IMG/VR virus record: IMGVR_UViG_3300034102_002786
Location: 18,413 to 82,412 of that record
DNA from: a virus
Lineage: Duplodnaviria > Heunggongvirae > Uroviricota > Caudoviricetes
DNA: 64,000 nt
Strand: one strand, 5' to 3'
Shown: positions 36,625 to 54,504 of the stretch, in pieces
How positions within the stretch are numbered: position 1 is the stretch's first letter
Layout of the letters: each line of letters opens with the position of its first letter
The notes under the pieces: generated by a model
Database searches by the model: none
What the model was told of the DNA's origin: nothing
The model's input: only the letters and a program-made list of their open reading frames with translations
Position numbers and translations under genes: made by a program

Positions 36625-36954
36625 ATGGTAACACTACAACCTAAAGCATTAGAACACATAATCCAATTAATGAAGGAAGGTGGTTTAACGTCTGATACTC
36701 ATAACTTACGAGTTGGTATCAAAGGTGGTGGATGTAGTGGGTTATCTTATACAATGGATTTCGATGATAAGATAGAACCTACTGATGAAGTGGTAGAGGC
36801 TGATGGATTGAAAGTAGTAATTGATAGAAAGAGTTTACTATATCTTTATGGTACTCAATTGACATATTCAGATGGATTAAATGGTAAAGGATTTCAATGG
36901 GAGAATCCAAACGCATCTCGAACTTGTGGATGTGGTGAATCGTTTTCACTATGA
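36625..36954 (+). CDS. iscA: Fe-S cluster insertion/carrier protein, IscA/ErpA/HesB family
   Basis: GGGCSGLSY and the C-terminal [14 protein letters not shown] are the HesB signatures. Confidence 0.9.
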
Positions 36955-40173: not shown

Positions 40174-40545
40174 ATGAACACAATTAAACAATATGGATTA
40201 GCAATACTTTGCGTTATATTTGGAACTATTGCTTTCCTAAACTATGCCCGATTCAAAGGTAGAGAATTGGAGATAGAACAATTAAGTAGAGATAATGAAA
40301 ATCTAAGACAACATATAATTACCTTAGATGAAAAAATAACCTTATTGGATAGTTATCCATACGAACATTCAGAAATAAAAAAAGAAAACAATGACAGAGT
40401 TACTGATTTTCCTAAACATAATGATTTTGGAAATTGTACTAAGTATAGACAATGCGGCTGTACTTGCGGCGATGGTAAAGGAGTTACCAAAAGACCAGCA
40501 AAAAAAGGCGCTGACTTACGGGATAGCGGGAGCATACCTTTTTAG
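40174..40545 (+). CDS. hypothetical small membrane protein; its 3' part overlaps terC in another frame
   Basis: N-terminal TM helix plus coiled coil up to ~40390; the remainder is probably frame-overlap read-through. Confidence 0.25.
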   Translation: MNTIKQYGLAILCVIFGTIAFLNYARFKGRELEIEQLSRDNENLRQHIITLDEKITLLDSYPYEHSEIKKENNDRVTDFPKHNDFGNCTKYRQCGCTCGDGKGVTKRPAKKGADLRDSGSIPF

Positions 40546-41041
40546 AGGATTAGCTTTACTATTCGCATCCGTTCTTATCAAATTGGTATGGTTGAAAGTA
40601 GCAGGTGGATTGTATCTTATGTACTTAGCATATAAAGCCCTATCTTCAAAAGTTGAGCAGGGTGGTGAGAGTAAGATGACAATTAAGATACCATTTCTAT
40701 CAGCACTTTGGTCTACTATCGTAGCAATTGAGATGATGGATTTAGTATTCAGTATTGATAATGTATTTGCCGCTGTAGCATTCACACCTAACTTATGGTT
40801 GATATGTGGTGGGGTATTCATTGGTATCCTTGCTATGAGATTTGCAACAACAAAGTTTGTGAAAGTGTTAGAGAAAAATCCTATATTGGAGAGAGTAGCA
40901 TATTGGGTAATTGGAGCATTGGGATTGAAGTTAGTATCATCATATTGGTTGCATGATTTGAATACTGAAAGCATAGATGCAGTATTCTCAATCTTAACTT
41001 TATTAGCGTTTATTATACCTTTAATTTTGAAGAAAAAATAA
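40391..41041 (+). CDS. TerC-family integral membrane protein
   Basis: LEIVLSIDNAAVLA and a second SIDNVFAAVA repeat are the TerC signature; multiple TM helices. Confidence 0.7.
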   Translation: MTELLIFLNIMILEIVLSIDNAAVLAAMVKELPKDQQKKALTYGIAGAYLFRGLALLFASVLIKLVWLKVAGGLYLMYLAYKALSSKVEQGGESKMTIKIPFLSALWSTIVAIEMMDLVFSIDNVFAAVAFTPNLWLICGGVFIGILAMRFATTKFVKVLEKNPILERVAYWVIGALGLKLVSSYWLHDLNTESIDAVFSILTLLAFIIPLILKKK

Positions 41042-41804: not shown

Positions 41805-42050
41805 ATGCACAACCCCTTTTGTTACATCGGTTGCCACAACTGGGAATACCGAAAAGAAAAACATCCAGTTACAAATCACCCAATGGGTCTACCAACTATT
41901 AGAGTAGTAGTAAGAGAATGTAAATGGTGTGGGCATAGAGAGCATCATTCCCTTCCTAGAGTTGGAAAGAAATTTACTCTATGGAAATCATTTGATGATA
42001 TAAAGAGGGATGAATGTATAGATATTAAAAGAGTTAGAGATGAAATTTAG
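41805..42050 (+). CDS. small Cys/His-rich protein
   Basis: CYIGCHNW...CKWCGHREHH. Confidence 0.4.
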   Translation: MHNPFCYIGCHNWEYRKEKHPVTNHPMGLPTIRVVVRECKWCGHREHHSLPRVGKKFTLWKSFDDIKRDECIDIKRVRDEI

Positions 42051-42399
42051 AACGAGAAAATTAATAAAGCCCGGTGACCTAAATGCTAGAGGCACACTAT
42101 TTGGCGGACAGGTATTGAAGTGGATAGATGAAGAAGCATCCATATTTACAATATGCCAATTAGGTGAGCGAAGTATTGTTACAAAGGCAATGAGTGAAAT
42201 CAACTTTGTGGCATCTGCAAAAACTGGTGACATTATTGAGATAGGATGCGAGTTAGTACAATTTGGTACAACATCAGTTACAATTTCATGCGAAGTTCGA
42301 AATAAAGATACTAAGCAAACTATCATTAAAATTGATAAGATTGTATTTGTTGCGGTAGATGAAAACGGAAGACCAAAACCACATGGTATAATAAAATGA
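42040..42399 (+). CDS. hotdog-fold acyl-CoA thioesterase (YciA-like)
   Basis: GDLNARGTLFGGQVLKWIDEEASI matches the hotdog thioesterase core. Confidence 0.8.
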   Translation: MKFRTRKLIKPGDLNARGTLFGGQVLKWIDEEASIFTICQLGERSIVTKAMSEINFVASAKTGDIIEIGCELVQFGTTSVTISCEVRNKDTKQTIIKIDKIVFVAVDENGRPKPHGIIK

Positions 42400-42941
42400 G
42401 TAAATGGATTTGCCAATACTGCGGACAAGATACATCTGATGTAGATTATGATTACTTAGTTGGTAATAATCATTTAGCATGTATATTACTGGCTAATGAT
42501 GATAAAGGTGTGAAGATAGAAAATTGGAATAAGTTAGATAATAAAGTATTTGAGATAGCTGGAGTTCCTATGAGAGTATCCGGAACTCAAATATTAGAAT
42601 CACGTTATACCATTGATGTATATGAAATGGTGGATGGTGACCAGTTTGTGAGAGTAGATTTGTGGGCTGATAATATGGAACTGAGCGTTAAGATATTTCC
42701 GCCTAAACAATTTACAACAATACCAATTCATTTGGAAAGGTATGTAGTAAAGGAACACCTAAAAGACCCAACCATTTTTTTAAGTACTGTTGAGAGTTTA
42801 GTAATAACTGATACAGAGGTGAAGAATTTTCTAACATTTCTTAGGGATAGGCTTAATTCCAAAAATGGTAAAACCGGTATTGTAAGTCATGTCATTAATA
42901 ATGGTAGTACAATGACATTTGGTTCAGCAAGTCTTTGGTAA
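42396..42941 (+). CDS. hypothetical protein
   Basis: 181-aa ORF. Confidence 0.5.
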   Translation: MSKWICQYCGQDTSDVDYDYLVGNNHLACILLANDDKGVKIENWNKLDNKVFEIAGVPMRVSGTQILESRYTIDVYEMVDGDQFVRVDLWADNMELSVKIFPPKQFTTIPIHLERYVVKEHLKDPTIFLSTVESLVITDTEVKNFLTFLRDRLNSKNGKTGIVSHVINNGSTMTFGSASLW

Positions 42942-42968
42942 TCTCAGGAATTTTTCGTATATTTGTAA
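42931..42968 (+). promoter_or_regulatory. Bacteroidetes-type promoter (-33 TTTG at 42934-42937, -7 TATATTTG at 42958-42965)
   Basis: gtcTTTGgtaatctcaggaatttttcgTATATTTGtaaaATG. Confidence 0.55.
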
Positions 42969-42969: not shown

Positions 42970-43320
42970 ATGAATTTTATAGTTGAATTTTGTAAGGGTG
43001 CGTTATATGGATTGGTGGCCCAAATTATTACTTTTGTACAATTACAAGGTAATATTAAATGGGGATTATTATCCAAATATCCAATATTGACGCTTTTAAC
43101 ATCAATACCAATGGCTTACCTATTTATGAAATCGGTAGAGCATTTTGTTGTTGCTTATAATGGTGAAATATGGCCTAGTAGATTAATAGGATTTGCAATA
43201 GGTATAATTGTATTTGCTATAATGAGTATCTTAATGTTTAAAGAACCAATAACTATGAAAACGTTTGTGTGTTTGATGTTGGCATGTTGCATATTGGGAG
43301 TTCAAATTTTTTGGAAATGA
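42970..43320 (+). CDS. membrane protein (3-4 TM helices)
   Basis: Start moved to the ATG at 42970 just downstream of the promoter; hydrophobic throughout. Confidence 0.45.
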   Translation: MNFIVEFCKGALYGLVAQIITFVQLQGNIKWGLLSKYPILTLLTSIPMAYLFMKSVEHFVVAYNGEIWPSRLIGFAIGIIVFAIMSILMFKEPITMKTFVCLMLACCILGVQIFWK

Positions 43321-43559
43321 TAATTAATATCTTACCGGATGAGTTAGAGCCGGAATTTGTAAATAGTTGGAAGATGGGACTCTTAAGAGAACCCTCTATT
43401 GATTATGCTACAAATGCCATACATTGTTTGTTTGAAGGTAATGATGTAATCGTTTTTAGATTTGATAAATATGGTTGGATAAATGATAATAGATACAACA
43501 CATATTTTGTATCAGCTGGAAATGCTGGTATAACAATACGAATAGAAAAAACTTTATAA
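43317..43559 (+). CDS. hypothetical protein
   Basis: Start at the internal ATG, with ATGA overlap on the upstream stop. Confidence 0.35.
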   Translation: MIINILPDELEPEFVNSWKMGLLREPSIDYATNAIHCLFEGNDVIVFRFDKYGWINDNRYNTYFVSAGNAGITIRIEKTL

Positions 43560-43591
43560 AAACCCAACTTTTTTAATTAAAATTAATATAT

Positions 43592-43753
43592 ATGAGTGGA
43601 TATACAATTTTCGGAATCATTTTAGTGGTAGTATCACTTTGGATGGCCTATGAAATTTGGAGAGCACCTTTAATGCAAGAGACAGAAGATGGTGGACTTC
43701 GAACAATAAGACCAACAAAGAAGTTAAGTGACTTATTTAAAAAGAAAAAGTAA
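43592..43753 (+). CDS. small membrane protein (53 aa)
   Basis: Hand-translated MSGYTIFGIILVVVSLWMAYEIW... Confidence 0.3.
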   Translation: MSGYTIFGIILVVVSLWMAYEIWRAPLMQETEDGGLRTIRPTKKLSDLFKKKK

Positions 43754-43754
43754 T

Positions 43755-44321
43755 ATGAAAGTACAAATTACAGATTCTTTTACTAAATCACTTAAAAGAC
43801 TAATATGGCATCAGCATTGGTTATACCGAACCTATGCCACCTTCCGATATGATATTCCACTCTTTGTAAAGAATGTGTGGAGATTCAGAAGGGAGTTATG
43901 GGACCATCAATGGTGGGATTATCGTTACACTTTGAATATGATGGAACGTTCTCTTATCATAATGGAAAAGGGAATGGGTACGAAGGGAATGGAAGTGAGC
44001 GAGACTAGAGAACCAAAAGTGAAATCTATGAGAAGGGCTTTGGAGTTACTTCGTAATAATAGAGAAGATAACTTTGTAGAAAGAGCTGAAGCTGAATTAG
44101 GTCCTATTACTAGATGGGATTGGGAATTGGATGAGGAAGGTGTAATGATTGATAGAGATACACCGGAACAAAAAGAACATAATCGTAACGTATTCAAAAG
44201 AGCACGTGAGATTGAAGATAGTGAGTGGAAAGAATTGTGGGAAATTTTTAAAGGCACTAAGAACTCAAAGAAGTACGGTAAAAATTATGATGGTACTGAT
44301 ATGAGAGCTTGGTGGGATTAA
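43755..44321 (+). CDS. hypothetical protein (Trp-rich)
   Basis: Start at the ATG after the upstream stop. Confidence 0.5.
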   Translation: MKVQITDSFTKSLKRLIWHQHWLYRTYATFRYDIPLFVKNVWRFRRELWDHQWWDYRYTLNMMERSLIIMEKGMGTKGMEVSETREPKVKSMRRALELLRNNREDNFVERAEAELGPITRWDWELDEEGVMIDRDTPEQKEHNRNVFKRAREIEDSEWKELWEIFKGTKNSKKYGKNYDGTDMRAWWD

Positions 44322-44348
44322 GCAAGGAAAAAACAAAAACAATAATAT

Positions 44349-44558
44349 ATGGTAACTTTGGGCTTAGTTACATTTATTGTTCTTTCTTGCGGTTTGTTAG
44401 CGTGGAGATGGGTAAGGGGTATTGACTACATGAAAGAAAATCATCCTGATTACAAAGGAGAAGATTTTCTGAATTGGGACAATGATGCTGATGTAACCAA
44501 AATTGCTGGTAGGGATGGATGGGATGATAATCTCGTTCACACCGAAGGTGATTTCTAA
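44349..44558 (+). CDS. hypothetical protein
   Basis: 69-aa ORF with an N-terminal TM helix. Confidence 0.4.
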   Translation: MVTLGLVTFIVLSCGLLAWRWVRGIDYMKENHPDYKGEDFLNWDNDADVTKIAGRDGWDDNLVHTEGDF

Positions 44559-44569
44559 GAGTAGACAGT

Positions 44570-44845
44570 ATGATGGAAACAATCGGATTTATTGGTAGCA
44601 TACTTTTAGCAGTATGTGGTATTCCAGAAGTGGTTCGCACTATTAAAGATAACAAATGTCATTTAGGATGGAACTTTTTGTTACTTTGGTTTGGTGGCGA
44701 ACTTTTCATGCTTACATATATTATACCAATGAAAGACCTTCCATTATTATTAAACTATGTATTCAATACGGCATTAGTAGGAATAATGCTATTTTATAAA
44801 ATCAAAAACACAAAATATGTTACCATTAAAAGAAGCAATCGCTGA
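44570..44845 (+). CDS. membrane protein
   Basis: 91-aa ORF with 2-3 TM helices. Confidence 0.45.
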   Translation: MMETIGFIGSILLAVCGIPEVVRTIKDNKCHLGWNFLLLWFGGELFMLTYIIPMKDLPLLLNYVFNTALVGIMLFYKIKNTKYVTIKRSNR

Positions 44846-45362
44846 GAAGCATTCGTTAGCAGAAAAAATGACATTCAATCAAAGAATGTTAAACGGAGAA
44901 TTGAGTAAAGAAGAATATATCGCATATCTTTGCCAACAATTAGGAATATTCGATGCGATAGAAAGAGGTAGAACACTACCACACCCATCCCTTAACAGAG
45001 TTGATAATATCTTAAAAGATATTCAAGAACTGATGGAAATTGGCGATGATGCTGGGTTGGAAATTGACCTTTTAGATTCAACTGAAAAATATTTTTTATA
45101 TATTAAATCATTATCGGATGAAGAAATACTTCCGCACATTTATCTTAACTACTTAGCCCTAATGTTTGGTGGGCAGATGATGAAATCAAAAGTTCCTGGT
45201 AATGGTAAGATGTATGAGTTCGATGGTGATATGAGGGAAGTTGCTGGAAGTATTAGAGCAATTCAAAAAGATGAATGGGCAGACGAAGCAAACAAAGCAT
45301 TAGATTACAATATAGCTATTTTTGATGAACTACAACGAATATCTGAATCAGCTGGCGAATAA
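44817..45362 (+). CDS. heme oxygenase
   Basis: LKEAIAEKHSLAEKMTFNQRMLNGELSKEEYIAYLCQQLGIFDAIE follows the heme-oxygenase proximal-helix pattern (K.H...E....L.G.....Y...L.Q.Y.I..A.E). Confidence 0.7.
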   Translation: MLPLKEAIAEKHSLAEKMTFNQRMLNGELSKEEYIAYLCQQLGIFDAIERGRTLPHPSLNRVDNILKDIQELMEIGDDAGLEIDLLDSTEKYFLYIKSLSDEEILPHIYLNYLALMFGGQMMKSKVPGNGKMYEFDGDMREVAGSIRAIQKDEWADEANKALDYNIAIFDELQRISESAGE

Positions 45363-45954
45363 GTTTCAACAAATGGTGTTAGCTGCACCTAAAGTTGGGA
45401 CTGTATTTACCGAAGACTTTGGATGGGTTAATCATCGTTACGAATCTTCCACATTTCGTTTGGCCCATATCGAAAGGTATTGGGATAAGAATATAGAAGT
45501 ACTTCACTTTACTACCTTTCCACACAAATGGAGTCCAGAACCTATATTTGGGTTTGATGTAATTTGTACTGAAAACAAAGTAACAGGATGTTATATGGAT
45601 TTGAGTCCGGGTCTGAAGGATTACCCATTTGATAATGGTATTGATTTTAAGGATAGGAAACCATTACCTGAATGGGCTACTGTATTTTCTGATAAGTTTA
45701 TAATGTTGAAGCCGGAAAGTAATGAAGAATTTATTCGTTTTTGTGATTGGGTGTTGGACAGATATGATTGGTATCTTAATTCTATCTTATGGATGGAAAA
45801 GAAAGTAGAAGATATTAATAGTGTAATAGAGAAGCAGAATATTTATTGTCAAATACAGGCAACAAACCCTCGAACATTTTCAGCATTAAAAGCTAAGATT
45901 GGTGAGGAAAAAGCTCGTTATTTTATGGAAAACATACTATTCCCAAAAATATGA
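45322..45954 (+). CDS. ferredoxin-dependent bilin reductase (PcyA/PebS/PcyX-like)
   Basis: LAHIERYWDKNIEVLHFTTFPHKWSPEPIFGFDVICTENKVTGCYMDLSP matches the FDBR core (AHVERY..K.DVLH.V.FP....LPIFG.D.V......S.AI.DLSP). Overlaps the heme-oxygenase gene by 41 nt; alternative start ATG at 45373. Confidence 0.7.
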   Translation: MMNYNEYLNQLANKFQQMVLAAPKVGTVFTEDFGWVNHRYESSTFRLAHIERYWDKNIEVLHFTTFPHKWSPEPIFGFDVICTENKVTGCYMDLSPGLKDYPFDNGIDFKDRKPLPEWATVFSDKFIMLKPESNEEFIRFCDWVLDRYDWYLNSILWMEKKVEDINSVIEKQNIYCQIQATNPRTFSALKAKIGEEKARYFMENILFPKI

Positions 45955-46316
45955 CACCAAAAAAAATATACATAGATTTTGGAACTCCCATAGAAGAATG
46001 GGCTGATAATAACAAAGGAGTAATTATGGATTCCATATATTCCAATGTATTTGATTTTGTAGAATCCGAAGAAGATGATAGAGTAGTACTTCAGGTATCA
46101 CCAAAGATACCACAAAGAAGAAGACCGGCGGCACTTAAAGAACCACCTATTAATGTGGATTTTATCATATCGAAGGACGATATTGATTTAACACTACGAA
46201 AGATGATGGAATATTATATTGAGGTGGAAGAATATGAAAGGTGTGCTGAAATCCAAAAGCTACAAAACGGAGAAAAAAAACCCAAAAAGAAAAGTAAAAA
46301 AGAGGCTTACTGGTAA
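45951..46316 (+). CDS. hypothetical protein
   Basis: 121-aa ORF with a Lys-rich C-terminus. Confidence 0.45.
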   Translation: MTPKKIYIDFGTPIEEWADNNKGVIMDSIYSNVFDFVESEEDDRVVLQVSPKIPQRRRPAALKEPPINVDFIISKDDIDLTLRKMMEYYIEVEEYERCAEIQKLQNGEKKPKKKSKKEAYW

Positions 46317-46343
46317 AAACTATATTTATACAAAAAATAAATA

Positions 46344-46799
46344 ATGTTCGTACCAAATCATTTGCATCTATTGGTAAAGGGATACTTAAAATCCCCACCA
46401 CAAACAGAAAAAGTGTTAAACATATGGTTTACACAATTGGTTGACAACGTAGGAATGAAAGTTGTTGCAGGTCCTACATCGGTTTATGTTAATGAACCGG
46501 GCAACGAAGGGATAACGGGAACGGTAACATTAGCAACATCGCATGCATCTATTCACGTTTGGGATAACGAAAATCCGGCTATGTTTCAATTTGATATTTA
46601 TAGTTGTTCGGATTTTAAACCAAAAGATGTACTAAACCATATAGATGATTGGTTTGGATTAACTGAAGCACATTGGCAGTTTATAGATAGAAACGGTAAA
46701 GATTTTAAAGTGATTGATTCGGGTCATTTTAAAAAGAGTGTTGTAAGAAAAATTACCGATGTATTTAAAACGAAAAAAGTAGTTGATGAACTTGGATGA
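46344..46799 (+). CDS. speD: S-adenosylmethionine decarboxylase proenzyme (SpeH/class 1 AdoMetDC)
   Basis: GPTSVYVNEPGNEGITGTVTLATSHASIHVWDNE carries the pyruvoyl-forming Ser region typical of small AdoMetDC. Confidence 0.7.
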   Translation: MFVPNHLHLLVKGYLKSPPQTEKVLNIWFTQLVDNVGMKVVAGPTSVYVNEPGNEGITGTVTLATSHASIHVWDNENPAMFQFDIYSCSDFKPKDVLNHIDDWFGLTEAHWQFIDRNGKDFKVIDSGHFKKSVVRKITDVFKTKKVVDELG

Positions 46800-47430
46800 T
46801 ATTAAATATGGTAATACAACTAAAGAACAGGAGCAGAAGGTAAGAGAAGACCGTTCCGGTATCATCAAAGACTGCGAAGAAACTGGTATCATCAAAGATG
46901 TATTAGAAAATCATCCATTTCCCAAAAATTCATCCGAAGAAACTAAAAACGAGTTAGATTATTTGTTAAGAATTACAAAAGAAGCATCCGAAGAAGATTT
47001 AAAATTTTGTAAGTTAATAGAAACCAATCACTATGATTTCTTTGTTATAGTTGGAAAAAAGCTGGGATTAGATGTTAGCAAGGAAGAAATACTAAAATGG
47101 GTTGGTGATGTGGACCCGATTCTATTTTACCTTAAAGATAAGTTCAATAGACCAAGGCCATATCAATTGGCAAAGGAACTAAACTTACCACTTTATCCAA
47201 TAACCGCATCTGATGCAAATTCAGCAGCATATCCATCTGGTCATACTTTAGATTTTTTAGTAATATTATATCATTTTGGAAAAATGAAGCCGGAAATTGC
47301 GGATGAAGTAGATGACTTTTATCATCAAATAAAAAGAGTAAGAGAATTGAGTGGATTACATTATCCATCTGATAGAAAAGTATCTGAATATTTATTTAAG
47401 CAGTTAGTTAAGAATAAATTAATAAAATAA
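46783..47430 (+). CDS. PAP2-superfamily phosphatase
   Basis: KDKFNRPRP, PSGH and SGLHYPSD are PAP2 motifs 1-3. Confidence 0.7.
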   Translation: MMNLDDIKYGNTTKEQEQKVREDRSGIIKDCEETGIIKDVLENHPFPKNSSEETKNELDYLLRITKEASEEDLKFCKLIETNHYDFFVIVGKKLGLDVSKEEILKWVGDVDPILFYLKDKFNRPRPYQLAKELNLPLYPITASDANSAAYPSGHTLDFLVILYHFGKMKPEIADEVDDFYHQIKRVRELSGLHYPSDRKVSEYLFKQLVKNKLIK

Positions 47431-47469
47431 GTTACAAACCTTAACGAAAGAAACCATATATGGACGACG

Positions 47470-47718
47470 GTGACAGTGAAAAAAACAATCAAAAAATTAG
47501 AAAACAAAGAGAGCAGATTGATGCTCTATCGCGATACATCATTGATGCTGGCAATGTTTTTTCTACCTTTGGGGTACGATGCACTGTTCAAGCTATTGAT
47601 GGATATAACAGGCTCATATTGGGGAGCAGACGTGGTCTTTTACTCAATTTCAGGCTGCTTTTGGTTGGCATATATATTGTTTACCAAACGTTTAAATAAA
47701 TTTGGAAAATCCGAATAA
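47470..47718 (+). CDS. small membrane protein
   Basis: 82-aa ORF; an alternative-frame ORF at 47460..47699 also exists. Confidence 0.35.
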   Translation: MTVKKTIKKLENKESRLMLYRDTSLMLAMFFLPLGYDALFKLLMDITGSYWGADVVFYSISGCFWLAYILFTKRLNKFGKSE

Positions 47719-47735
47719 ATTTAGTATCTTTGTAT
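47701..47735 (+). promoter_or_regulatory. Bacteroidetes-type promoter (-33 TTTG at 47701-47704, -7 TATCTTTG at 47725-47732)
   Basis: TTTGgaaaatccgaataaatttagTATCTTTGtatag. Confidence 0.55.
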
Positions 47736-47737: not shown

Positions 47738-47971
47738 ATGGAAATCAACGAAAACATATTAAAACTTAAACTTAAAGAATCCGAATTAAAGGAAGAATTA
47801 GCAAGTGCTGAAGCTCACATACCTGTAAATAATATGGGTAAATGGGCTCGTCAAACTAAAATTGACCGTATTTCGGAAAGACTAAAGAAGGTGCAAGAAA
47901 AAATCCATTTTCACGATTCTATATATTTATCTAATGAAATATACAATGAATGGAAAAAGGATGTAAAGTAG
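47738..47971 (+). CDS. hypothetical coiled-coil protein
   Basis: 77-aa ORF. Confidence 0.4.
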   Translation: MEINENILKLKLKESELKEELASAEAHIPVNNMGKWARQTKIDRISERLKKVQEKIHFHDSIYLSNEIYNEWKKDVK

Positions 47972-48636
47972 TACGTTTGGATGAAGCTTCTTTAGGTAGA
48001 GTTCTCCAACACATTCAGGGCAAAAAGAGTGTGAAAAATTGGGGTATGCTTACCGCATATAGATATTCTAATACTCCAAACCAAAATAAAAAACTTAATA
48101 AAGAATTAGAAGCTGAATTAAGGCAGATGGGGCATGGATTCTTTAAAGTAGAAGGTCATTGGGTTGAGTGCCAGGATGGTAACCTATCATACGAAGATTG
48201 TCCGAAGAACTTACTAAAAGATGCTATCGAAGAATCACTTTTCGTTCCAAATATTTCAGCAAAAGATATTCACAACTTAGGTAAAAAATACGGACAGGAT
48301 GCGGTTATCTTTGGTGGTGAACAAACTAAAGGAAACGCAACTCTTATATTCAAAGATGGTAAGGTAGAAAATATTGGTAAGTTTTCTCCTGATAAAATAC
48401 AACAAGCTTATTCAAAACTAAAAGGCGGAAAAACTTTTGTATTTAAGCCAGAAGAACCTAAAGTTTCTGATGATGAAACAAAGTTAATGCATTTATTACC
48501 AAAAGATATTTTAGACAAAACTATTAAAAATCCAGCAACAGGAAATATGATTAAAGTTAAATCAGCTTTAGCATACGATGAGAAACACCCTGTATTTAAG
48601 GCAGCTCAAACATTTGTTGCACAATCTAAAAAATAA
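47950..48636 (+). CDS. hypothetical protein
   Basis: 228-aa ORF. Confidence 0.5.
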   Translation: MEKGCKVVRLDEASLGRVLQHIQGKKSVKNWGMLTAYRYSNTPNQNKKLNKELEAELRQMGHGFFKVEGHWVECQDGNLSYEDCPKNLLKDAIEESLFVPNISAKDIHNLGKKYGQDAVIFGGEQTKGNATLIFKDGKVENIGKFSPDKIQQAYSKLKGGKTFVFKPEEPKVSDDETKLMHLLPKDILDKTIKNPATGNMIKVKSALAYDEKHPVFKAAQTFVAQSKK

Positions 48637-48637: not shown

Positions 48638-48672
48638 TTTGGCGGATTCGTATCTTTTTAGTATATTTGTAT
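48638..48672 (+). promoter_or_regulatory. Bacteroidetes-type promoter (-7 TATATTTG at 48662-48669)
   Basis: aaTTTGgcggattcgtatctttttagTATATTTGtat. Confidence 0.45.
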
Positions 48673-48806: not shown

Positions 48807-48878
48807 TGTGGGGTAGAGCAGAGGTAGCTCGCAAGGCTCATAACCTTGAGGCCGTTGGTTCGAATCCTTCCCCCGCAA
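48807..48878 (+). tRNA. tRNA-Met-like (anticodon CAT), copy 1; the T-stem has two T-T mismatches
   Basis: Acceptor TGTGGGG/CCCCGCA, D-stem GAGC/GCTC, anticodon stem CAAGG/CCTTG with loop CTCATAA, T-loop TTCGAAT. The acceptor is identical to the tRNA at 52002. Confidence 0.55.
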
Positions 48879-48887
48879 CAAAAAAGA

Positions 48888-48921
48888 TTTGGTAGTTTGA
48901 AAAAATTATCGTATCTTTACA
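48888..48921 (+). promoter_or_regulatory. tandem promoter copy P2
   Basis: aaaaagaTTTGgtagtttgaaaaaattatcgTATCTTTAcaaagtt. Confidence 0.55.
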
Positions 48922-49040
48922 AAGTTAAGGTTGAAGCCATCAACTAATAAAACCGATTGAGTGACTCGTTAAACATTAGTTTCGTTAGAGTGAAAAGAAA
49001 CTACAAAGCCGGATACTTTAACTAACTAATTAAAAAAAGA

Positions 49041-49074
49041 TTTGGTAGTTTGAAAAAATTATCGTATCTTTACT
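49041..49074 (+). promoter_or_regulatory. tandem promoter copy P3
   Basis: aaaaagaTTTGgtagtttgaaaaaattatcgTATCTTTActaagatt. Confidence 0.55.
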
Positions 49075-49140
49075 AAGATTCAAAAATAAAGTAGTTGATT
49101 GGTTCGCCAGAAAACAAAATTGAGAATCTTTAAAAAAAGT

Positions 49141-49174
49141 TTTGGAAAATTGAAAAAGATTTCGTATCTTTACT
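49141..49174 (+). promoter_or_regulatory. tandem promoter copy P4
   Basis: TTTGgaaaattgaaaaagatttcgTATCTTTActctgttc. Confidence 0.5.
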
Positions 49175-50368
49175 CTGTTCTTAAAACAAAAGTTCTTTAA
49201 CATATTGAAGATACTACACATAGTAACCTTGTGTTACATAGTGTACGATGGCCGCCTATGGTCATTAAATAAACTACGAAAGTAGGATAAAGTGAATCAT
49301 TTGGTTAAATGATTTGCGGTTTGTAATCCGTTTAGGGTTATGAGCTTGAGTAGGCAAGTGAGATATTACTTGGGCTTTGTATGTGAGGGTAACACTGTAG
49401 CAGAAGAGTTTGGGTAACTGGGGGTATGTAGAACCTTCGGTTGAGTTCGGAAGAACAATAAGAATAACTCATAGAATTATTGTAAGACATAGAAAGCTAA
49501 TCCCTTTTTACTATTGCGTGATTCAATACCAAAGTGGTCTTGATAATCAAGCTATCCGAAAGGACGTAAGATAAGACTGTGTACGCGTGGTGGCGTTACT
49601 ATCCTTTAATGTGGGACACCAATCCCTATTAATGAAGATGACTTGAAGTATGGCGTTGAGATAACGCATTGGGTAGTTTAGTATTCTCTCGTTCAAAAGA
49701 TGGGGGAGCTGGTGATGGACCGCTACCTGAATCAATCTACAAACCAAAACTTTATATTTTCAATTTAGGTTTGAAAAACTATAATTAAACATAAAGCATA
49801 AGTGTCCATCAGTTGTGACCGAAAGGTGCATACATAGTTGGGAGTTGTTCCCAGCCATAAACGCCCGCAAGGTGGTTATGATTTTTACGAAAAGCTTATA
49901 GACCCGCAAGGTTGAATCAGTTCGGCAGGATTGAATAAGGGGAGTAGTAAGAGAGTAAGTTACAACTTTAAGAGTGGTTATACTTTACTAACCTGCATTG
50001 ACTGGTACATCTCAAAAGGGTGTGGAAACGAAAGGAATCAAAATAATCTTTCTAAAGCTAGTTATCCCAACGTGTATTCTCAACGTTTTTACTTTCTCAA
50101 TGGTTGTATATTGGTTCGATTCCAATAGAGAGAGCAAATTCATCCTGTAAGATGAATTATCGTGGTCTTTCTTTTACATAATGTTCACCTATTGAGAATA
50201 AAGAGTTATGTAGACCTAAAAGAACAAAACTAATGTAGACAGTATAGGCTGGTTTTTGTAAGTTTGACTGTTAATCCCTTATCAAATAGGGCTAAACGAA
50301 AATGGTTGACACGATAGATACCTGTGGTTAGGCAAGCGCTCGGAAAGTTCCCACCTTACAAAAAAACT

Positions 50369-50440
50369 TTCCATTTATGCGGTGTAAGTGTTACGGTAGC
50401 ACATTTCACATTCCAGTGAAAAGGAGAGGTTCAATTCCTT
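50369..50440 (+). ncRNA. tRNA-like element (pseudo-tRNA) with a 6-nt anticodon loop
   Basis: Acceptor TGCGGTG/CACCGCT (6 of 7 bp), T-arm AGAGG-TTCAATT-CCTTT, anticodon stem TTCAC/GTGAA with loop ATTCCA. Confidence 0.2.
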
Positions 50441-50505
50441 TCACCGCTCTACTAACAACTGAAAAGTTGTTCGTTTCATATCTTAATTTTTATTACAACT
50501 TAGAT

Positions 50506-50530
50506 GGGGGTGCTTCGGCATCCCCTATTT
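50506..50530 (+). terminator. rho-independent terminator with a UUCG tetraloop
   Basis: GGGGGTGC-TTCG-GCATCCCC is an 8-bp stem followed by TATTT. Confidence 0.55.
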
Positions 50531-50776
50531 AAGCCTGATGAAACTAACAACAATTCGGAAAAAATTATTTATATATACTTATTAATATAACAAAGTGATG
50601 AAAACTTTAACACTACATACAAATTGTTCGCAACCTACATTGAGAAATGAGTGGGCAGGCATTCGTATGTTTAGTACGATTAGTAATCCGGCAAACTTAG
50701 GCAAGGTGGATTATATTTGTACACAGTTAGAGGAAGCATCAGGTTGGTAATAGATTATACTTAAAACAACATAGAA

Positions 50777-50816
50777 AGACCTCTAACTGAATCAAATCGG
50801 TTAGAGGTTTTTTCGT
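50777..50816 (+). terminator. rho-independent terminator
   Basis: AGACCTCTAAC-(12-nt loop)-GTTAGAGGTTT followed by TTTTT; ends 6 nt before tRNA-Asn. Confidence 0.6.
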
Positions 50817-50821
50817 TTTAA

Positions 50822-50893
50822 GCTCCTTTGGCGCAGCGGTAGCGCAGCAGACTGTTAATCTGTTGGTCCTTGGTTCGAATCCAAGAGGGAGCG
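50822..50893 (+). tRNA. tRNA-Asn (GTT)
   Basis: Acceptor GCTCCTT/AGGGAGC, D GCGC/GCGC, anticodon loop CTGTTAA, T-arm CTTGG-TTCGAAT-CCAAG. Confidence 0.85.
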
Positions 50894-50926
50894 CAGTATA
50901 TGTTCTTTGACATATTGGGATAAGTT

Positions 50927-51001
50927 GGAAGTTTAGCTCAGCTGGTTTAGAGCATCACGTTTACACCGTGAGGGTCATAGGTTCGAATCCTGTAACTTCC
51001 A
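50927..51001 (+). tRNA. tRNA-Val (TAC)
   Basis: Acceptor GGAAGTT/AACTTCC, D GCTC/GAGC, anticodon arm TCACG-TTTACAC-CGTGA, T-loop TTCGAAT. Confidence 0.85.
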
Positions 51002-51106
51002 CAACATGTTCCATACACATTCCTACAATCTCTCAGTTGAAAGCTGTTGTAGGATTGAGTGAGTAGCACGATAGGGCTATCAAATGTGAGTTATATGGAA
51101 CGCCAT

Positions 51107-51188
51107 TGGGGTATCGCATAGTGGCAATTGCGGCTGACTGTAAATCAGCTCTCATTTGAGTTCGGCGGTTCGAGTCCGTCTACCCCAA
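51107..51188 (+). tRNA. tRNA-Tyr (GTA), class II with a long variable arm
   Basis: Acceptor TGGGGTA/TACCCCA, anticodon arm GCTGA-CTGTAAA-TCAGC, 14-nt variable arm, T-arm GGCGG-TTCGAGT-CCGTC. Confidence 0.8.
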
Positions 51189-51192
51189 CACC

Positions 51193-51265
51193 GGTGATGA
51201 AGCTAACTAGGTAGAAGCGAAAGACTGAAAATCTTTAGGAAGTGGTTCGATACCACTCATTACCA
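51193..51265 (+). tRNA. tRNA-Phe (GAA)
   Basis: Acceptor GGTGATG/CATTACC, anticodon arm AAAGA-CTGAAAA-TCTTT, T-arm AGTGG-TTCGATA-CCACT. Confidence 0.8.
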
Positions 51266-51287
51266 CTTAACAATTAAAAAAACAATT

Positions 51288-51497
51288 ATGGCAGATTTTA
51301 ATCATGGAGTTGGTACATTAATAAAAGAGTTGGTGACACCAAAAGGAAAAATTGAAATGGGTAGTAAAGGAATAGTAACTGCGTATCTACCAGAAGATGG
51401 TAAGTTCGCAGTAGATTTTGGAAATGGACAATGGATAACATTTGATAAAATATCATTGGACGAATATTGTAAAATAGAATTAGAAGATAACAATTAA
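51288..51497 (+). CDS. hypothetical protein embedded in the tRNA array
   Basis: 69-aa ORF between tRNA-Phe and tRNA-Lys. Confidence 0.4.
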   Translation: MADFNHGVGTLIKELVTPKGKIEMGSKGIVTAYLPEDGKFAVDFGNGQWITFDKISLDEYCKIELEDNN

Positions 51498-51537
51498 AAA
51501 CAAATACTATGGAAAGTGACAAGTATGACAAAAGTCA

Positions 51538-51611
51538 GACCTCTTAGCTCAGTTGGTTAGAGCACTATACTTTTAATATAGGAGTCAATGGTTCGAATCC
51601 ATTAGGGGTCA
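51538..51611 (+). tRNA. tRNA-Lys (TTT)
   Basis: Acceptor GACCTCT/AGGGGTC, D GCTC/GAGC, anticodon arm CTATA-CTTTTAA-TATAG, T-arm AATGG-TTCGAAT-CCATT. Confidence 0.85.
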
Positions 51612-51686
51612 CAAAAAGTTCCGAACTTAATATTGAGTTAAAATAATGATGTACACATTATACGATAGGATGGAAACCTATCACAT

Positions 51687-51760
51687 TGGAGTATAGCTCA
51701 GTTGGTTAGAGCGCTAATCTGATACGTTAGATGCCGCAGGTTCGAATCCCGCTACTCCAA
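51687..51760 (+). tRNA. tRNA-Ile (GAT)
   Basis: Acceptor TGGAGTA/TACTCCA, D GCTC/GAGC, anticodon arm CTAAT-CTGATAC-GTTAG, T-loop TTCGAAT (one A-C mismatch in the T-stem). Confidence 0.75.
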
Positions 51761-51765
51761 CACAC

Positions 51766-51836
51766 ATGGGTATAGTGAAATGGTATCATGCCGGTCTCCA
51801 AAACCGTTGTTGTGGGTTCGAATCCTACTACCCGTG
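51766..51836 (+). tRNA. tRNA-Trp (CCA)
   Basis: Acceptor ATGGGTA/TACCCGT, D GTGA/TCAT, anticodon loop CTCCAAA, T-arm GTGGG-TTCGAAT-CCTAC. Confidence 0.7.
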
Positions 51837-51841
51837 CAATT

Positions 51842-51914
51842 GGCTCTTTAGTGAAATGGATTATCACACAACGCTACGGACGTTGGGTTAAAGGTTCGAA
51901 TCCTTTAGGGGCTA
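51842..51914 (+). tRNA. tRNA-Arg (ACG)
   Basis: Acceptor GGCTCTT/AGGGGCT (three G-U pairs), D GTGA/TCAC, anticodon arm CAACG-CTACGGA-CGTTG, T-arm AAAGG-TTCGAAT-CCTTT. Confidence 0.7.
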
Positions 51915-51922
51915 CATAATAA

Positions 51923-51993
51923 GGCGAGTTGTTAGAGTGGTGATATGAAGTTCTGCAAAAACTTTTACACAGGTTCGAATCCTGTACTCGCCT
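51923..51993 (+). tRNA. tRNA-Cys (GCA)
   Basis: Acceptor GGCGAGT/ACTCGCC, anticodon arm AAGTT-CTGCAAA-AACTT, T-arm ACAGG-TTCGAAT-CCTGT; the D-arm pairs weakly. Confidence 0.75.
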
Positions 51994-52001
51994 CTTGATA
52001 T

Positions 52002-52073
52002 TGTGGGGAGATTAGGTAATCCGTTTGGTCTCATAAGCCAGATATTCAGGTTCAATTCCTGGCCCCGCAACCA
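52002..52073 (+). tRNA. tRNA-Met-like (CAT), copy 2, with a reduced D-arm and an encoded 3' CCA
   Basis: Acceptor TGTGGGG/CCCCGCA, anticodon loop CTCATAA, T-arm TCAGG-TTCAATT-CCTGG, ends A-CCA. Candidate initiator or Ile-lysidine tRNA. Confidence 0.55.
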
Positions 52074-52076
52074 AAT

Positions 52077-52151
52077 GGTGTTTGAAGCATTAAGGTGATG
52101 CGCTAGTTTGTGGAGCTAGATAAGACGGTTCGATACCGTCCTTACACCCCA
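52077..52151 (+). tRNA. tRNA-His (GTG) with the extra 5' G(-1) and an encoded CCA
   Basis: G-1 plus acceptor GTGTTTG/CTTACAC (two T-T mismatches), D GCAT/ATGC, anticodon arm CTAGT-TTGTGGA-GCTAG, T-arm GACGG-TTCGATA-CCGTC, discriminator C. Confidence 0.65.
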
Positions 52152-52153
52152 AC

Positions 52154-52243
52154 GGAGAGTTGCCTGAGTGGCCGAAAGGGCCGGTTTGCTAAACCGTTGT
52201 ACGGAGTTAATCTGTACCGAGAGTTCGAATCTCTCACTCTCCG
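52154..52243 (+). tRNA. tRNA-Ser (GCT), class II
   Basis: Acceptor GGAGAGT/ACTCTCC, anticodon loop TTGCTAA, long variable arm TGTACGGAGTTAATCTGTACC, T-arm GAGAG-TTCGAAT-CTCTC. Confidence 0.8.
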
Positions 52244-52252
52244 CATAAATAA

Positions 52253-52286
52253 TTTGGATAATTGAAAAATTATTCGTATATTTGTA
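52253..52286 (+). promoter_or_regulatory. Bacteroidetes-type promoter inside the array (-33 TTTG at 52253-52256, -7 TATATTTG at 52277-52284)
   Basis: aaTTTGgataattgaaaaattattcgTATATTTGtataac. Confidence 0.55.
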
Positions 52287-52306
52287 TAACTTAAAACATA
52301 AAAGAG

Positions 52307-52735
52307 ATGAACGTAAAACAGGCTTTAAAAGCAAAGAACAAACTTACCACTCAAATCAAAGCGTTATATGAAATCGCTAAGAATCATAACTCAATTGAGG
52401 AAGGTAACCTGCGTAGATATTCCGTAAATGGAGTATTGAATGAAGCAGAAGAATTGACCAAAGAGTTGGTTGATTTAAAAACTAAAATCCATCAGGCTAA
52501 CCAACCTGTATATGGTAAGATTTTCCTAATGGCAGAGCTAAAAGGAAAGGTAAAGCAACTTAAAGGAATGAGTTGTGAAGAAGGTAAAGTAACCGAAAGA
52601 TTTGGTTCAATCCAATCGGTGAAAGAAGTAGAAATTAATATCGCTCAAAAAGACCAAATGATAAAAGATTTGGAAAATCAAATTGAGGGATTGCAGGATG
52701 AGTTGGATGTGTATAACGCAACTACAACCATCTAA
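52307..52735 (+). CDS. hypothetical coiled-coil protein embedded in the tRNA array
   Basis: 142-aa ORF downstream of the internal promoter. Confidence 0.5.
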   Translation: MNVKQALKAKNKLTTQIKALYEIAKNHNSIEEGNLRRYSVNGVLNEAEELTKELVDLKTKIHQANQPVYGKIFLMAELKGKVKQLKGMSCEEGKVTERFGSIQSVKEVEINIAQKDQMIKDLENQIEGLQDELDVYNATTTI

Positions 52736-52947
52736 TAAAAAATTGGGAAGATGTGAGTGATGAAATTTGTTTTTATTATTATCTTGCAAATCTGACGCAT
52801 TGCCAATCAGTATTAAACGATGATGATTAAATAATTTCAACTCTCAAATCTTGATAGAGTCAACATTCGCGCAATGTCAACACACTCAAAACTCTTATTA
52901 ATTGGTAATCATATTAACTTATTGATTCACCACATCAACCCATCTAT

Positions 52948-53019
52948 GCTCGGTTCGTCTAACGGTTAGGACACCACCCTTTCACGGTGGTGATACGGGT
53001 TCGATTCCCGTACCGAGTA
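52948..53019 (+). tRNA. tRNA-Glu (TTC)
   Basis: Acceptor GCTCGGT/ACCGAGT, D GTCT/GGAC, anticodon arm CCACC-CTTTCAC-GGTGG, T-arm ACGGG-TTCGATT-CCCGT; resembles bacterial tRNA-Glu throughout. Confidence 0.85.
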
Positions 53020-53113
53020 CAATAGCATACATCACAATCAGTCAAGCCGTATTTAGCTGTTAGTGTATGTTAGATAAGAGAAAGAAACGGCTGGGACATT
53101 CTCTTATCAAAAC

Positions 53114-53185
53114 GCTTCCAAAGCATTGCAGGCGATGCGCTTGACTTGTAATCAAGATAATTCGGTTCGATTCCGGATGGAAGCT
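53114..53185 (+). tRNA. tRNA-Thr (TGT)
   Basis: Acceptor GCTTCCA/TGGAAGC, D GCAT/ATGC, anticodon arm CTTGA-CTTGTAA-TCAAG, T-arm TTCGG-TTCGATT-CCGGA. Confidence 0.85.
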
Positions 53186-53260
53186 CAAACTAATTCATTG
53201 AGGTGTTTGTCAACCAGTGCATGACATGGATGGTGCGGATAAAGGTGAATTAGTGATTAA

Positions 53261-53334
53261 GGATTGTTGGTGAAGTTGGTTATCATGCCACCCTGTCACG
53301 GTGGAGTTCACGGGTTCGAGTCCCGTACAATCCG
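53261..53334 (+). tRNA. tRNA-Asp (GTC)
   Basis: Acceptor GGATTGT/ACAATCC, D GTGA/TCAT, anticodon arm CCACC-CTGTCAC-GGTGG, T-arm ACGGG-TTCGAGT-CCCGT. Confidence 0.85.
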
Positions 53335-53582
53335 CAAAAGGTATAATTAGATTGTATATGCAATTAGCTCGGCAATCTTTAACACCTGCAGATGTGAGGT
53401 GATTATACTTTTAAGTTGTTTCATACACTTAACACACCTAGTAACAAGGTAAGGCACATAGAGTTACATAGAGGCATGGAGTAATTACCCAACGCCACAT
53501 TCGGACTACAAATGTAGATTAGGTTCAGACGTTGTAGAGAAAGAGATGTTAAGAGTAAACTTGCAAGTTGAAACAACTGTTT

Positions 53583-53659
53583 GGTTCGGTAGCTCAGTTG
53601 GATAGAGCAACAGCCTTCTAAGCTGTGGGTCAAAGGTTCGAATCCTTTCCGAATCACCA
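53583..53659 (+). tRNA. tRNA-Arg (TCT) with an encoded CCA
   Basis: Acceptor GGTTCGG/CCGAATC, D GCTC/GAGC, anticodon arm ACAGC-CTTCTAA-GCTGT, T-arm AAAGG-TTCGAAT-CCTTT, then A-CCA. Confidence 0.85.
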
Positions 53660-53674
53660 AATAAAAAGTAAGAC

Positions 53675-54121
53675 ATGAAAAATGTAACTTTAGTAACATG
53701 CTTCTTTTTGTTATTCATTCCGCATAATATAAATAACTCTGAAAGGAGTGAGGAAGAAGTTGTGGATGAAATAATAGAAAAGAAAAAGTTACCTTATGAT
53801 TTAGTGACCGTAACAACGTACACTGTATCTAAAGGTGAAACCGATTCAACTCCATTAATTACCGCAAGTGGTTACAAATTGGATAGCCTTAATCCAAAGA
53901 AACAAAAGGTAATAGCAATAAGCAGAGACCTGAAACGAAAGTATAAGTTTGGACAAAAAGTAAGAGTGAAGGGTGCTGGTAAATTAGATGGTGTATATAC
54001 CGTCAGAGATTTAATGGCGAAGAGATGGACAAAAAAGATTGATATATTAATTAACCCAGATGATAAAGGAACAAAAATCAGAAAGGTTAAGTTATATAAT
54101 GTAGCAAACATAGGGAATTAG
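53675..54121 (+). CDS. secreted 3D-domain protein (MltA/YocH-like cell-wall-binding or lytic fold)
   Basis: N-terminal signal-like segment, then VTVTTYTVSKGETDSTPLITASGYKL...VRVKGAGKLDGVYTVRD, which follows the 3D-domain pattern (TAYT..E.D..P.TASG). Its 3' end overlaps tRNA-Pro by 10 nt. Confidence 0.6.
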   Translation: MKNVTLVTCFFLLFIPHNINNSERSEEEVVDEIIEKKKLPYDLVTVTTYTVSKGETDSTPLITASGYKLDSLNPKKQKVIAISRDLKRKYKFGQKVRVKGAGKLDGVYTVRDLMAKRWTKKIDILINPDDKGTKIRKVKLYNVANIGN

Positions 54122-54185
54122 CGTAGCCCGGTATCGCGCTTGGTTTGGGACCAAGAGGTCGTCAGTTCGAATCTGGCATTCCCTA
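54112..54185 (+). tRNA. tRNA-Pro (TGG)
   Basis: Acceptor AGGGAAT/ATTCCCT, anticodon arm CTTGG-TTTGGGA-CCAAG, T-arm GTCAG-TTCGAAT-CTGGC. Confidence 0.8.
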
Positions 54186-54218
54186 CGAAAAGATTTGGAT
54201 AAGTGAAATATAAAATAA

Positions 54219-54446
54219 ATGGCAAAGTATATTAAAACCGCATTCATACGAGATTTAGAAATCAAATTGCAAAATGAAGAAATTTCATATGGTAAAGCGA
54301 TTGAACTTATTCAAGAAGAAGTTATTGAAAATTATAAAAAAGATAATACCTTATTGAAAAAAATAAAAAGATTATTAGGTGAGGTTTGGCTAGGATTTAA
54401 GATAGCTGAAGGAAACCGAAATAAATCTCAATGGGGTAAATTTTAA
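54219..54446 (+). CDS. hypothetical protein embedded in the tRNA array
   Basis: 75-aa ORF. Confidence 0.4.
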   Translation: MAKYIKTAFIRDLEIKLQNEEISYGKAIELIQEEVIENYKKDNTLLKKIKRLLGEVWLGFKIAEGNRNKSQWGKF

Positions 54447-54447
54447 A

Positions 54448-54482: not shown

Positions 54483-54504
54483 AGTTATTTGAAATAGTAT
54501 CGCC

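Follow-up and report, generated by a model that had tools for sequence, protein, structure and literature searches.

A gene pair encoding a heme oxygenase (HO; gene hemO) and a ferredoxin-dependent bilin reductase (FDBR) is an established auxiliary unit of phages and is known in phages of non-photosynthetic hosts. One such cassette, PhiHemO-PhiPcyX, has reportedly been found in uncultured marine phages by Ledermann et al. in 2016 and 2018, and the structure of its PcyX is PDB 5OWG. The present analysis concerns an overlapping HO-FDBR pair in a stretch of 64,000 nucleotides (positions 18,413 to 82,412 of the IMG/VR virus record IMGVR_UViG_3300034102_002786), hereafter called the window, whose own numbering is used throughout. 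Our preferred reading, to which we give a probability of about 0.6, is that this pair would be a working auxiliary-metabolic cassette of a Bacteroidota jumbo phage that makes phycocyanobilin from host heme, the bilin itself being selected and the released iron being a concurrent gain.

The closest described systems resemble this locus in layout but differ from it in enzyme type, host or surroundings. PhiHemO-PhiPcyX is also a two-gene hemO-FDBR cassette carried by phage DNA, with a short HO, and PhiPcyX belongs like the window FDBR to the PcyA/PcyX lineage, equivalents of PcyA His88 and Asp105 being common to both. However, PhiPcyX has Asp where the window FDBR has Glu, makes phycoerythrobilin and shares only ~30% identity with the window enzyme, which is ~35 residues shorter and whose model is nearer to PcyA than to PcyX (template modelling score, TM, of 0.86 versus 0.70). 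The cultured Pelagibacter phage Mosig EXVC030M (MT647606) infects a non-photosynthetic heterotroph and carries an overlapping hemO-FDBR pair (genes 54 and 53, HO of 188 aa) whose products are 30% (HO) and 31% (FDBR) identical to those of the window. Unlike the window phage, Mosig, a T4-like myovirus that infects SAR11, has Shine-Dalgarno sites in 47.5% of its genes, its FDBR is of the PcyX type (Asp), and its pair lies inside the structural module, beside genes for a ferrochelatase and 2OG-Fe(II) oxygenases. The FDBR of the freshwater phage CB_2, devoid of the PcyX Asp, has been shown to be a true PcyA making phycocyanobilin (Nat Commun 2024, PMC11480375). Compared by its published description, the CB_2 vHemO/vPcyA cassette likewise includes a phage FDBR and has a predicted non-cyanobacterial host, but this host is the alphaproteobacterium Methylocystis and the cassette is tied to a viral 5-aminolevulinate synthase, whereas the window showed no alaS. 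The authors of that work, who discussed both the PcyX phages and CB_2, left the purpose of the pair open and proposed iron supply (PMC11480375). Finally, the ho1, pcyA and pebS genes of cyanophages (pcyA of P-RSM4, pebS of P-SSM2) and cyanobacterial PcyA (PDB 2D1E and 2G18) belong to the same enzyme families, PcyA having its catalytic triad in common with the window FDBR and being its best structural match. However, these enzymes are only 23–33% identical to those of the window, their product is used by the phycobilisomes of the hosts, pcyA of P-RSM4 has no adjacent HO gene, and in PebS the Glu and His of the triad have no equivalent (PMC13446030).

Therefore, the contrast that the earlier note on this DNA had drawn between cyanophages and a phage of a non-photosynthetic host is supported for this locus but is not new in itself, since the PcyX phages, Mosig and CB_2 precede it. 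Within the library that was searched, no paper reported a Bacteroidota phage with hemO or an FDBR gene, nor this lineage. What is new here is Bacteroidota as the probable host phylum, together with a compact HO/FDBR lineage whose active site is of the PcyA type.

The two enzymes and their lineage

Pfam, searches of solved structures and AlphaFold models agree on an HO gene followed by an overlapping FDBR gene, as the earlier note had read from the letters alone. The FDBR reading frame is open from 45322 (210 aa), and its start was placed at the next ATG (Table 1) because homologues keep the N-terminus MNYxEYLN; the two genes therefore share 38 nt, which they read in different frames. Similar overlaps exist in the related loci L010 (35 nt), L011 (38 nt) and L012 (26 nt) and in Mosig (14 nt), and translation of the two genes is probably coupled through this overlap. 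The nearest Bacteroidota-type promoter on the 5′ side of the pair is intergenic, lies 5 nt before the ORF starting at 42970 and has an extended consensus common to eight other sites. From this promoter to the following one, the block is 4.7 kb long and has its genes on the same strand, with no terminator-like sites above chance, and we infer that it constitutes the transcription unit of the pair.

The HO matches Pfam Heme_oxygenase PF01126 (E 3.9e-14, 53.4 bits for a cut-off of 23) and, in a phmmer search against PDB sequences, human HO-2, Synechocystis HO-1 and Corynebacterium HmuO. Its proximal His is His12 (EKHSLAE), which falls opposite the proximal His region when aligned with human HO-2; this residue and Gly118-Gly119 of the distal helix (MFGGQMM) do not vary among 20 aligned sequences, one of which is the Mosig HO. 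The AlphaFold model, obtained with 26 homologues (mean predicted local distance difference test, pLDDT, of 88.1), has the all-helical HO fold, with a TM of 0.82 to Synechocystis HO-1 (1WE1) and of ~0.8 to HmuO and to human HO-1 and HO-2. Since more than 1000 metagenomic homologues have 177–194 aa, a length of 181 aa is normal for this family. Sequence and model both point to a compact HO-1-type enzyme, predicted to convert heme into biliverdin IXalpha, Fe2+ and CO.

The FDBR matches Pfam Fe_bilin_red PF05996 (E 1e-20, 74.9 bits for a cut-off of 31) and, in PHROGs, phage auxiliary genes annotated as ‘ferredoxin oxidoreductase’. Its AlphaFold model (pLDDT 93.9, predicted TM 0.90) is an alpha/beta/alpha sandwich whose top 46 structural matches are all FDBRs, red chlorophyll catabolite reductase (RCCR) coming next. 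It superposes best on PcyA crystal structures (TM 0.83–0.86) and less well on PebA (0.74), PcyX (0.70), PebB (0.70), HY2 (0.68) and PebS (~0.64, with 15% identity), the latter being the least similar of the FDBRs.

The residues of the active site lead in the same direction. In HMMER and MAFFT alignments, Glu50, His61 and Asp78 of the window FDBR (in HIE, LH and FD) correspond to Glu76, His88 and Asp105 of Synechocystis PcyA, and H48, E50, H61 and D78 are invariant in a 40-sequence alignment reaching down to 31% identity. Glu76 is conserved in PcyA and needed for reduction of the D-ring vinyl group, whereas PcyX has Asp at this position and phycoerythrobilin as product (PMC13446030, PMC10151467). 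PebS carries Ala, Asn and Asp at PcyA positions 76, 88 and 105, plus Asp206 (PMC13446030), and the pre-PcyA enzymes of heterotrophic bacteria (Pre-1/2/3) lack equivalents of both Glu76 and His88, the latter being replaced by Asn or Thr (PMC10151467, PMC13446030). At the Glu76 position, where PcyX 5OWG and the Mosig FDBR have Asp, the window FDBR has Glu. It thus has the residues that define PcyA and departs from PcyX (Glu, not Asp), from PebS (Glu/His/Asp) and from pre-PcyA (His61 and Glu50 present). Of the PcyA/PebS/PcyX-like reductase proposed in the earlier note, the placement in the PcyA/PcyX lineage was retained, while identity with PcyX or PebS is ruled out by the residues at positions 76, 88 and 105. 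Since the PcyA triad is kept and the model resembles PcyA most, the predicted product is phycocyanobilin, and the protein is probably a compact PcyA-like enzyme that would convert biliverdin into this bilin.

When 1.84 billion cluster representatives were searched exhaustively with the FDBR, 238 clusters matched at E <= 1e-3, 17 of them at E <= 1e-30. The short form is shared by more than 340 metagenomic FDBR proteins. In an alignment of 125 sequences (121 full-length representatives, the query and four references), the Glu/His/Asp triad is present in 82. Among the 39 full-length representatives with E better than 1e-18, 37 have Glu at the Glu76 position and the other two Gln, whereas the variants with Asp, Ser, Asn, Gln or Lys at this position group with PcyX and Mosig. 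A neighbour-joining tree contains three groups, namely cyanobacterial and cyanophage PcyA, the PcyX group and a compact Glu-type group that includes the query, with bootstraps of 2–16% at the deep splits. The wider FDBR family also includes natural fusions in both orders, FDBR-HO (P0262 and P0286, 380 and 399 aa) and HO-FDBR (P0292, 504 aa), which support a functional hand-off between the two enzymes. Besides these, one protein fuses an FDBR to a methyltransferase (P0257, 410 aa).

Forty-four viral contigs of IMG/VR, the longest of 310 kb, carry relatives of the pair. The HO gene lies directly 5′ of the FDBR gene in 43 of these 44 loci, the remaining one (L045) beginning inside the FDBR gene, and it also precedes the FDBR gene in three further metagenome loci. 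No FDBR relative was found when 185,579 species genomes were scanned, first with the protein alone and then with 22 aligned sequences, and the compact HO/FDBR lineage is apparently restricted to viruses.

Bilin, iron and the benefit to the phage

From the conserved residues and the gene layout, we infer the following course for the infected cell. The pair would be transcribed from a host-type promoter within its same-strand block, with coupled translation. HO would open host heme to biliverdin IXalpha, freeing Fe2+ and CO, and the FDBR would take over the biliverdin and carry out a four-electron reduction, most likely to phycocyanobilin. Host ferredoxin is the proposed electron donor. No ferredoxin gene was seen near the pair; a scan for Cys motifs found none in the window or near the pair in the 47 related loci. 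The bilin itself would be under selection, beyond its mere removal to keep HO turning over, because the Glu that is specific to the vinyl-reduction step of PcyA is invariant throughout the lineage. Concurrently, the released iron could feed the Fe-S cluster assembly proteins of the phage, IscU and IscA, whose genes lie 8–9.5 kb upstream of the pair. What speaks against this course is that no bilin-binding protein, lyase or ferredoxin was seen in the 64 kb of the window, out of a genome of at least 278 kb. A conserved bilin-binding neighbour was also sought in the related loci, where only ordinary large-phage genes (GroES/GroEL, ThyA, ThyX, a sigma factor, a homing endonuclease) and small unassigned ORFs recur.

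The pair could instead serve iron salvage only, HO being the selected enzyme and its iron going to Fe-S and other iron enzymes of the phage, while the FDBR would strip biliverdin from HO and the bilin would be waste. Biliverdin release limits the turnover of HO, and HO/FDBR fusions fit such a hand-off of the product. The presence of IscU and IscA-like genes and the lack of any bilin acceptor in the window, a host that would be devoid of phycobiliproteins, the ferrochelatase and four 2OG-Fe(II) oxygenase genes adjoining the Mosig pair, and the iron supply already proposed for phage cassettes (PMC11480375) all agree with this explanation. However, a biliverdin sink has no need of the Glu76 equivalent, yet this Glu is invariant in the 40-sequence alignment and nearly so among the closest representatives, whereas the PcyX group has D, S, N, Q or K. 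Furthermore, a 217.7-kb viral contig (L010, JGI 3300043325) encodes, directly 5′ of its HO-FDBR pair (8936–9502), a homologue of the CpeT/CpcT bilin lyases (Pfam E 3.9e-30) that is 26–28% identical to cyanophage CpeT; therefore, the bilin is used at least there. Iron salvage without use of the bilin is thus a possible but somewhat unlikely explanation of the pair.

Some doubt also concerns the bilin that is made, which could be phycoerythrobilin, as for PcyX, or yet another one, such as a two-electron product or phytochromobilin. Several observations weigh against phycocyanobilin. The closest solved relative of the FDBR by sequence is PcyX 5OWG (E 7.5e-19), cyanobacterial PcyA coming after it (~3e-14), and the position of PcyA Asp220 is occupied by Pro, as in PcyX, so that the active site is a mosaic. 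The branch point of the lineage is not fixed by the neighbour-joining tree (bootstraps of 2–16% in 200 replicates), and no sister-group claim is made. The predicted product relies on three residues and a model, the enzyme is ~35 residues shorter than those characterised, and the pre-PcyA enzymes show that sequence is a poor guide to the products in this lineage (PMC13446030). In spite of this, the position that decides D-ring vinyl reduction carries Glu and not the Asp specific to PcyX, the phage enzyme of CB_2, which likewise lacks this Asp, is a true PcyA (PMC11480375), and the model superposes best on PcyA. A product other than phycocyanobilin therefore appears unlikely.

If phycocyanobilin is made, it might act as a functional ligand rather than a by-product when this widespread group of jumbo phages infects non-phototrophic Bacteroidota, for instance by re-chromophorylating a host bacteriophytochrome or by loading a bilin-binding protein of the phage that has escaped recognition, although we consider this quite improbable. 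Phytochromes occur in Flavobacteriaceae and Sphingobacteria (PMC4422448) and are candidate acceptors, but a role of phytochrome in accepting the phage bilin is a speculation. If the bilin were such a ligand, the phage would alter the light or redox sensing of the infected cell or turn it to its own use.

Host signals and the weaker alternatives

The regulatory signals of the window resemble those of Bacteroidota rather than those of cyanobacteria, in keeping with what had been noticed at first reading. The motif TTTG-N17-21-TAnnTTTG occurs 15 times compared to 3.9 +/- 2.0 in shuffled sequences (none of the 100 shuffles reaching 15), with 12 copies on the gene strand and three on the other one. 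Its -33 TTTG and -7 TAnnTTTG agree with the Bacteroidota consensus in both sequence and spacing. Nine copies share an extended form, TTTGG...cgTATATTTGTA (spacer of 19–20 nt, cgTAT[A/C]TTTGTA), and are all intergenic; in six of them the following called ORF begins 5–38 nt away, whereas the remaining three precede the GOLLD/tRNA region or are more distant from the ORF that follows. Sites of the sigma-70 type are not enriched near the pair (23 found for 31.3 expected). Shine-Dalgarno cores precede only 4 of the 103 window genes (3.9%), which is below background. The same procedure gave 3/67 (4.5%) for the Flavobacterium phage immuto, 13/54 (24%) for the cyanophage P-RSM4 and 29/61 for the pelagiphage Mosig.

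Shared genes add to these signals. The closest phage homologues of the SPFH/Band_7 protein (40–48% identity) all belong to crAss-like Bacteroides phages and Prevotella Lak phages, and five proteins are common to the window phage and immuto. A DUF4494 protein (41% identity) is present in both phages. GTP cyclohydrolase I (FolE) is 43% identical to its immuto counterpart; the FolE and DUF4494 genes adjoin in immuto, within its region of 7-deazaguanine DNA-modification genes, and no other gene of the 7-deazaguanine pathway was seen in the window. Judging from the regulatory signals and the shared phage genes, the host probably belongs to Bacteroidota. Two results nevertheless count against this assignment. 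The promoter motif is absent from 40 kb of immuto, the Flavobacterium phage used as a control; therefore, it may belong to a phage-specific sigma factor and is not universal among flavobacterial phages. In addition, since the two scans of species genomes gave no relative of the FDBR, they provide neither a cellular source nor a prophage as a clue to the host.

The lineage as a whole is not uniform in this respect. Twenty-six of the 47 related loci are devoid of Shine-Dalgarno sites (14/503 genes) and have 31 copies of the promoter motif on the gene strand, whereas eight use such sites (66/150 genes) and have one copy. Therefore, the lineage spans several hosts and most of its members resemble the window phage.

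A cyanobacterial host, to whose phycobilisomes the pair would supply phycobilins and in which the promoter motif would be phage-specific, is very unlikely. Shine-Dalgarno sites are used sparingly in cyanobacteria too, 24 of the 25 FDBR records of isolated phages are cyanophage genes, a Microcystis phage shares a large vWA protein (32% identity), and one relative, L010, carries CpeT. However, the Shine-Dalgarno use of the window is like that of a Flavobacterium phage and far under that of the cyanophage P-RSM4, the -33/-7 motif fits the Bacteroidota consensus, and no photosynthesis gene (psbA, hli, petE, etc.) was found in ~85 kb with Pfam annotation. Moreover, the contig that carries CpeT represents a different kind of phage (44% GC, Shine-Dalgarno sites in 59% of genes, no Bacteroidota promoter motif). 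As for the two genes being decaying, inactive remnants, which the unusual shortness of both proteins (181 and 209 aa) could suggest, this is hardly credible, since the short forms are normal in large families, no variation is seen at the catalytic residues, both models are complete and of high confidence, and identical proteins recur in many samples.

Genomic surroundings and implications

The source of the window is a jumbo phage of at least 278 kb, since an identical HO is encoded by a contig of 278,432 bp; an identical FDBR recurs in many samples, and a relative of 274 kb is IMGVR_UViG_3300034104_003795. That the element is a phage, as first proposed, is confirmed by its collagen-like tail fibre, its tRNA array, its related IMG/VR contigs and its gene orientation, all ORFs of >=200 aa in the window being on one strand. 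The window also encodes a SAM lyase, and genes for a dUTPase, a clamp loader and a PD-(D/E)XK nuclease lie directly upstream of it. When 25 neighbouring proteins were compared by tblastn with phage isolates, the matches were scattered (Xanthomonas jumbo phages, Flavobacterium phage immuto, pelagiphages, crAss-like and Lak phages) and no close cultured relative was found.

Table 1. Coordinates of the features discussed, in the numbering of the 64,000-nt window
Feature	Position	Strand	Remarks
Glycan-biosynthesis island, window part	1–16176		~23 kb in all, including ~7 kb upstream (L057)
DUF4494 protein	22001–22222		
758-aa protein	26654–28930		Unannotated PHROG 1576
CobS/MoxR-like AAA ATPase	29106–30311		PHROG ‘porphyrin biosynthesis’
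GTP cyclohydrolase I (FolE)	30404–31030		
SPFH/Band_7 protein	31550–32473		
IscU	35262–35660		NifU_N, E 7e-51; phage-encoded Fe-S cluster assembly
IscA/HesB-like	36625–36954		Fe-S_biosyn; phage-encoded Fe-S cluster assembly
Paralogous ORF, 247 aa	39420–40163		
TerC-family membrane protein	40391–41041		
Paralogous ORF, 252 aa	41043–41801		
4HBT acyl-CoA thioesterase	42040–42399		
Upstream Bacteroidota-type promoter	42934–42965	+	Pattern match, TTTGG-N20-TATATTTG; nearest such promoter 5′ of the pair
Inferred transcription unit of the pair	42970–47699		Bounded by the upstream and following promoters
188-aa ORF 5′ of the pair	43755–44321		
Heme oxygenase (HO)	44817–45362	+	181 aa
Bilin reductase (FDBR)	45325–45954	+	209 aa
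Overlap of HO 3′ end and FDBR 5′ end	45325–45362	+	38 nt, read from the sequence
ORF without known function, 121 aa	45951–46316	+	4-nt overlap (ATGA) with the FDBR stop
SpeD-like protein	46344–46799		In the inferred transcription unit
Following Bacteroidota-type promoter	47701–47732	+	Pattern match, downstream of the pair
SAM lyase-family protein	47950–48636		Just past the inferred transcription unit
Bacteroidota-type promoter before GOLLD	48638–48669		
tRNA array	48807–56231	+	27 genes, nearly all amino acids covered
GOLLD RNA (Rfam RF02032)	49669–50086	+	Full length (model 1–416); 295.9 bits, gathering 150; E 1e-83
tRNA call with abnormal 2-base anticodon	50378–50449		
Promoter copy inside the tRNA array	52253–52284		
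Near-match to the promoter inside the tRNA array	54472		

Within the inferred transcription unit, the ORF that follows the FDBR gene has a C-terminal EEYERCAE motif and a basic tail, and gave no match in Pfam and PHROG searches. Its homologues are located directly or closely 3′ of the FDBR gene in 13 related viral loci, in some of which the FDBR is only 44–45% identical; whether it is part of the functional unit is uncertain. The 188-aa ORF on the other side was considered as a possible counterpart of the CpeT homologue of L010 and was rejected, with no similarity to it (E 0.16) and no Pfam match. The S-adenosylmethionine decarboxylase (SpeD-like) encoded in this unit is 33–35% identical to pelagiphage copies and its gene is located a few genes from that of the SAM lyase-family protein.

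Several other features of the window stand out. The glycan-biosynthesis island is unusually large for a phage and encodes glycosyltransferases, three NAD-dependent epimerase/dehydratases, a DegT aminotransferase, methyltransferases, a fucosyltransferase-like GT11, a sugar kinase and a nucleotidyltransferase. The 758-aa protein is paired with the CobS/MoxR-like AAA ATPase, and the best match of this pair (42%) is the same pair in the 484-kb uncultured huge phage LR756508; the 758-aa protein alone also matches the Microcystis phage Mel-JY01. A PspC-domain ORF separates the IscU and IscA-like genes, and two paralogous ORFs with similar N-termini and no family match flank the gene of the TerC-family membrane protein. 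The 4HBT thioesterase shares 62% identity with its counterpart in the Xanthomonas jumbo phage XacN1 and 55% with its counterparts in Stenotrophomonas jumbo phages, a similarity that points to gene exchange among jumbo phages across host phyla. The GOLLD RNA lies ~1 kb 3′ of a Bacteroidota-type promoter and just 5′ of the tRNA array, which includes three tRNA-Met genes.

Taken together, this locus would add a third host phylum to the open puzzle of the bilin genes carried by phages of non-photosynthetic bacteria, so far represented by the PcyX phages, Mosig and CB_2. The invariance of a PcyA-type active site in a large viral and metagenomic lineage argues for selection on the product, beyond the release of iron. 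Since SAR11 and methanotrophs are much harder to grow and handle than flavobacteria, the question would become approachable by experiment if a member of this phage group were isolated. Furthermore, the compact HO (181 aa) and FDBR (209 aa) and their natural fusions may serve as minimal bilin-making parts in heterologous hosts.

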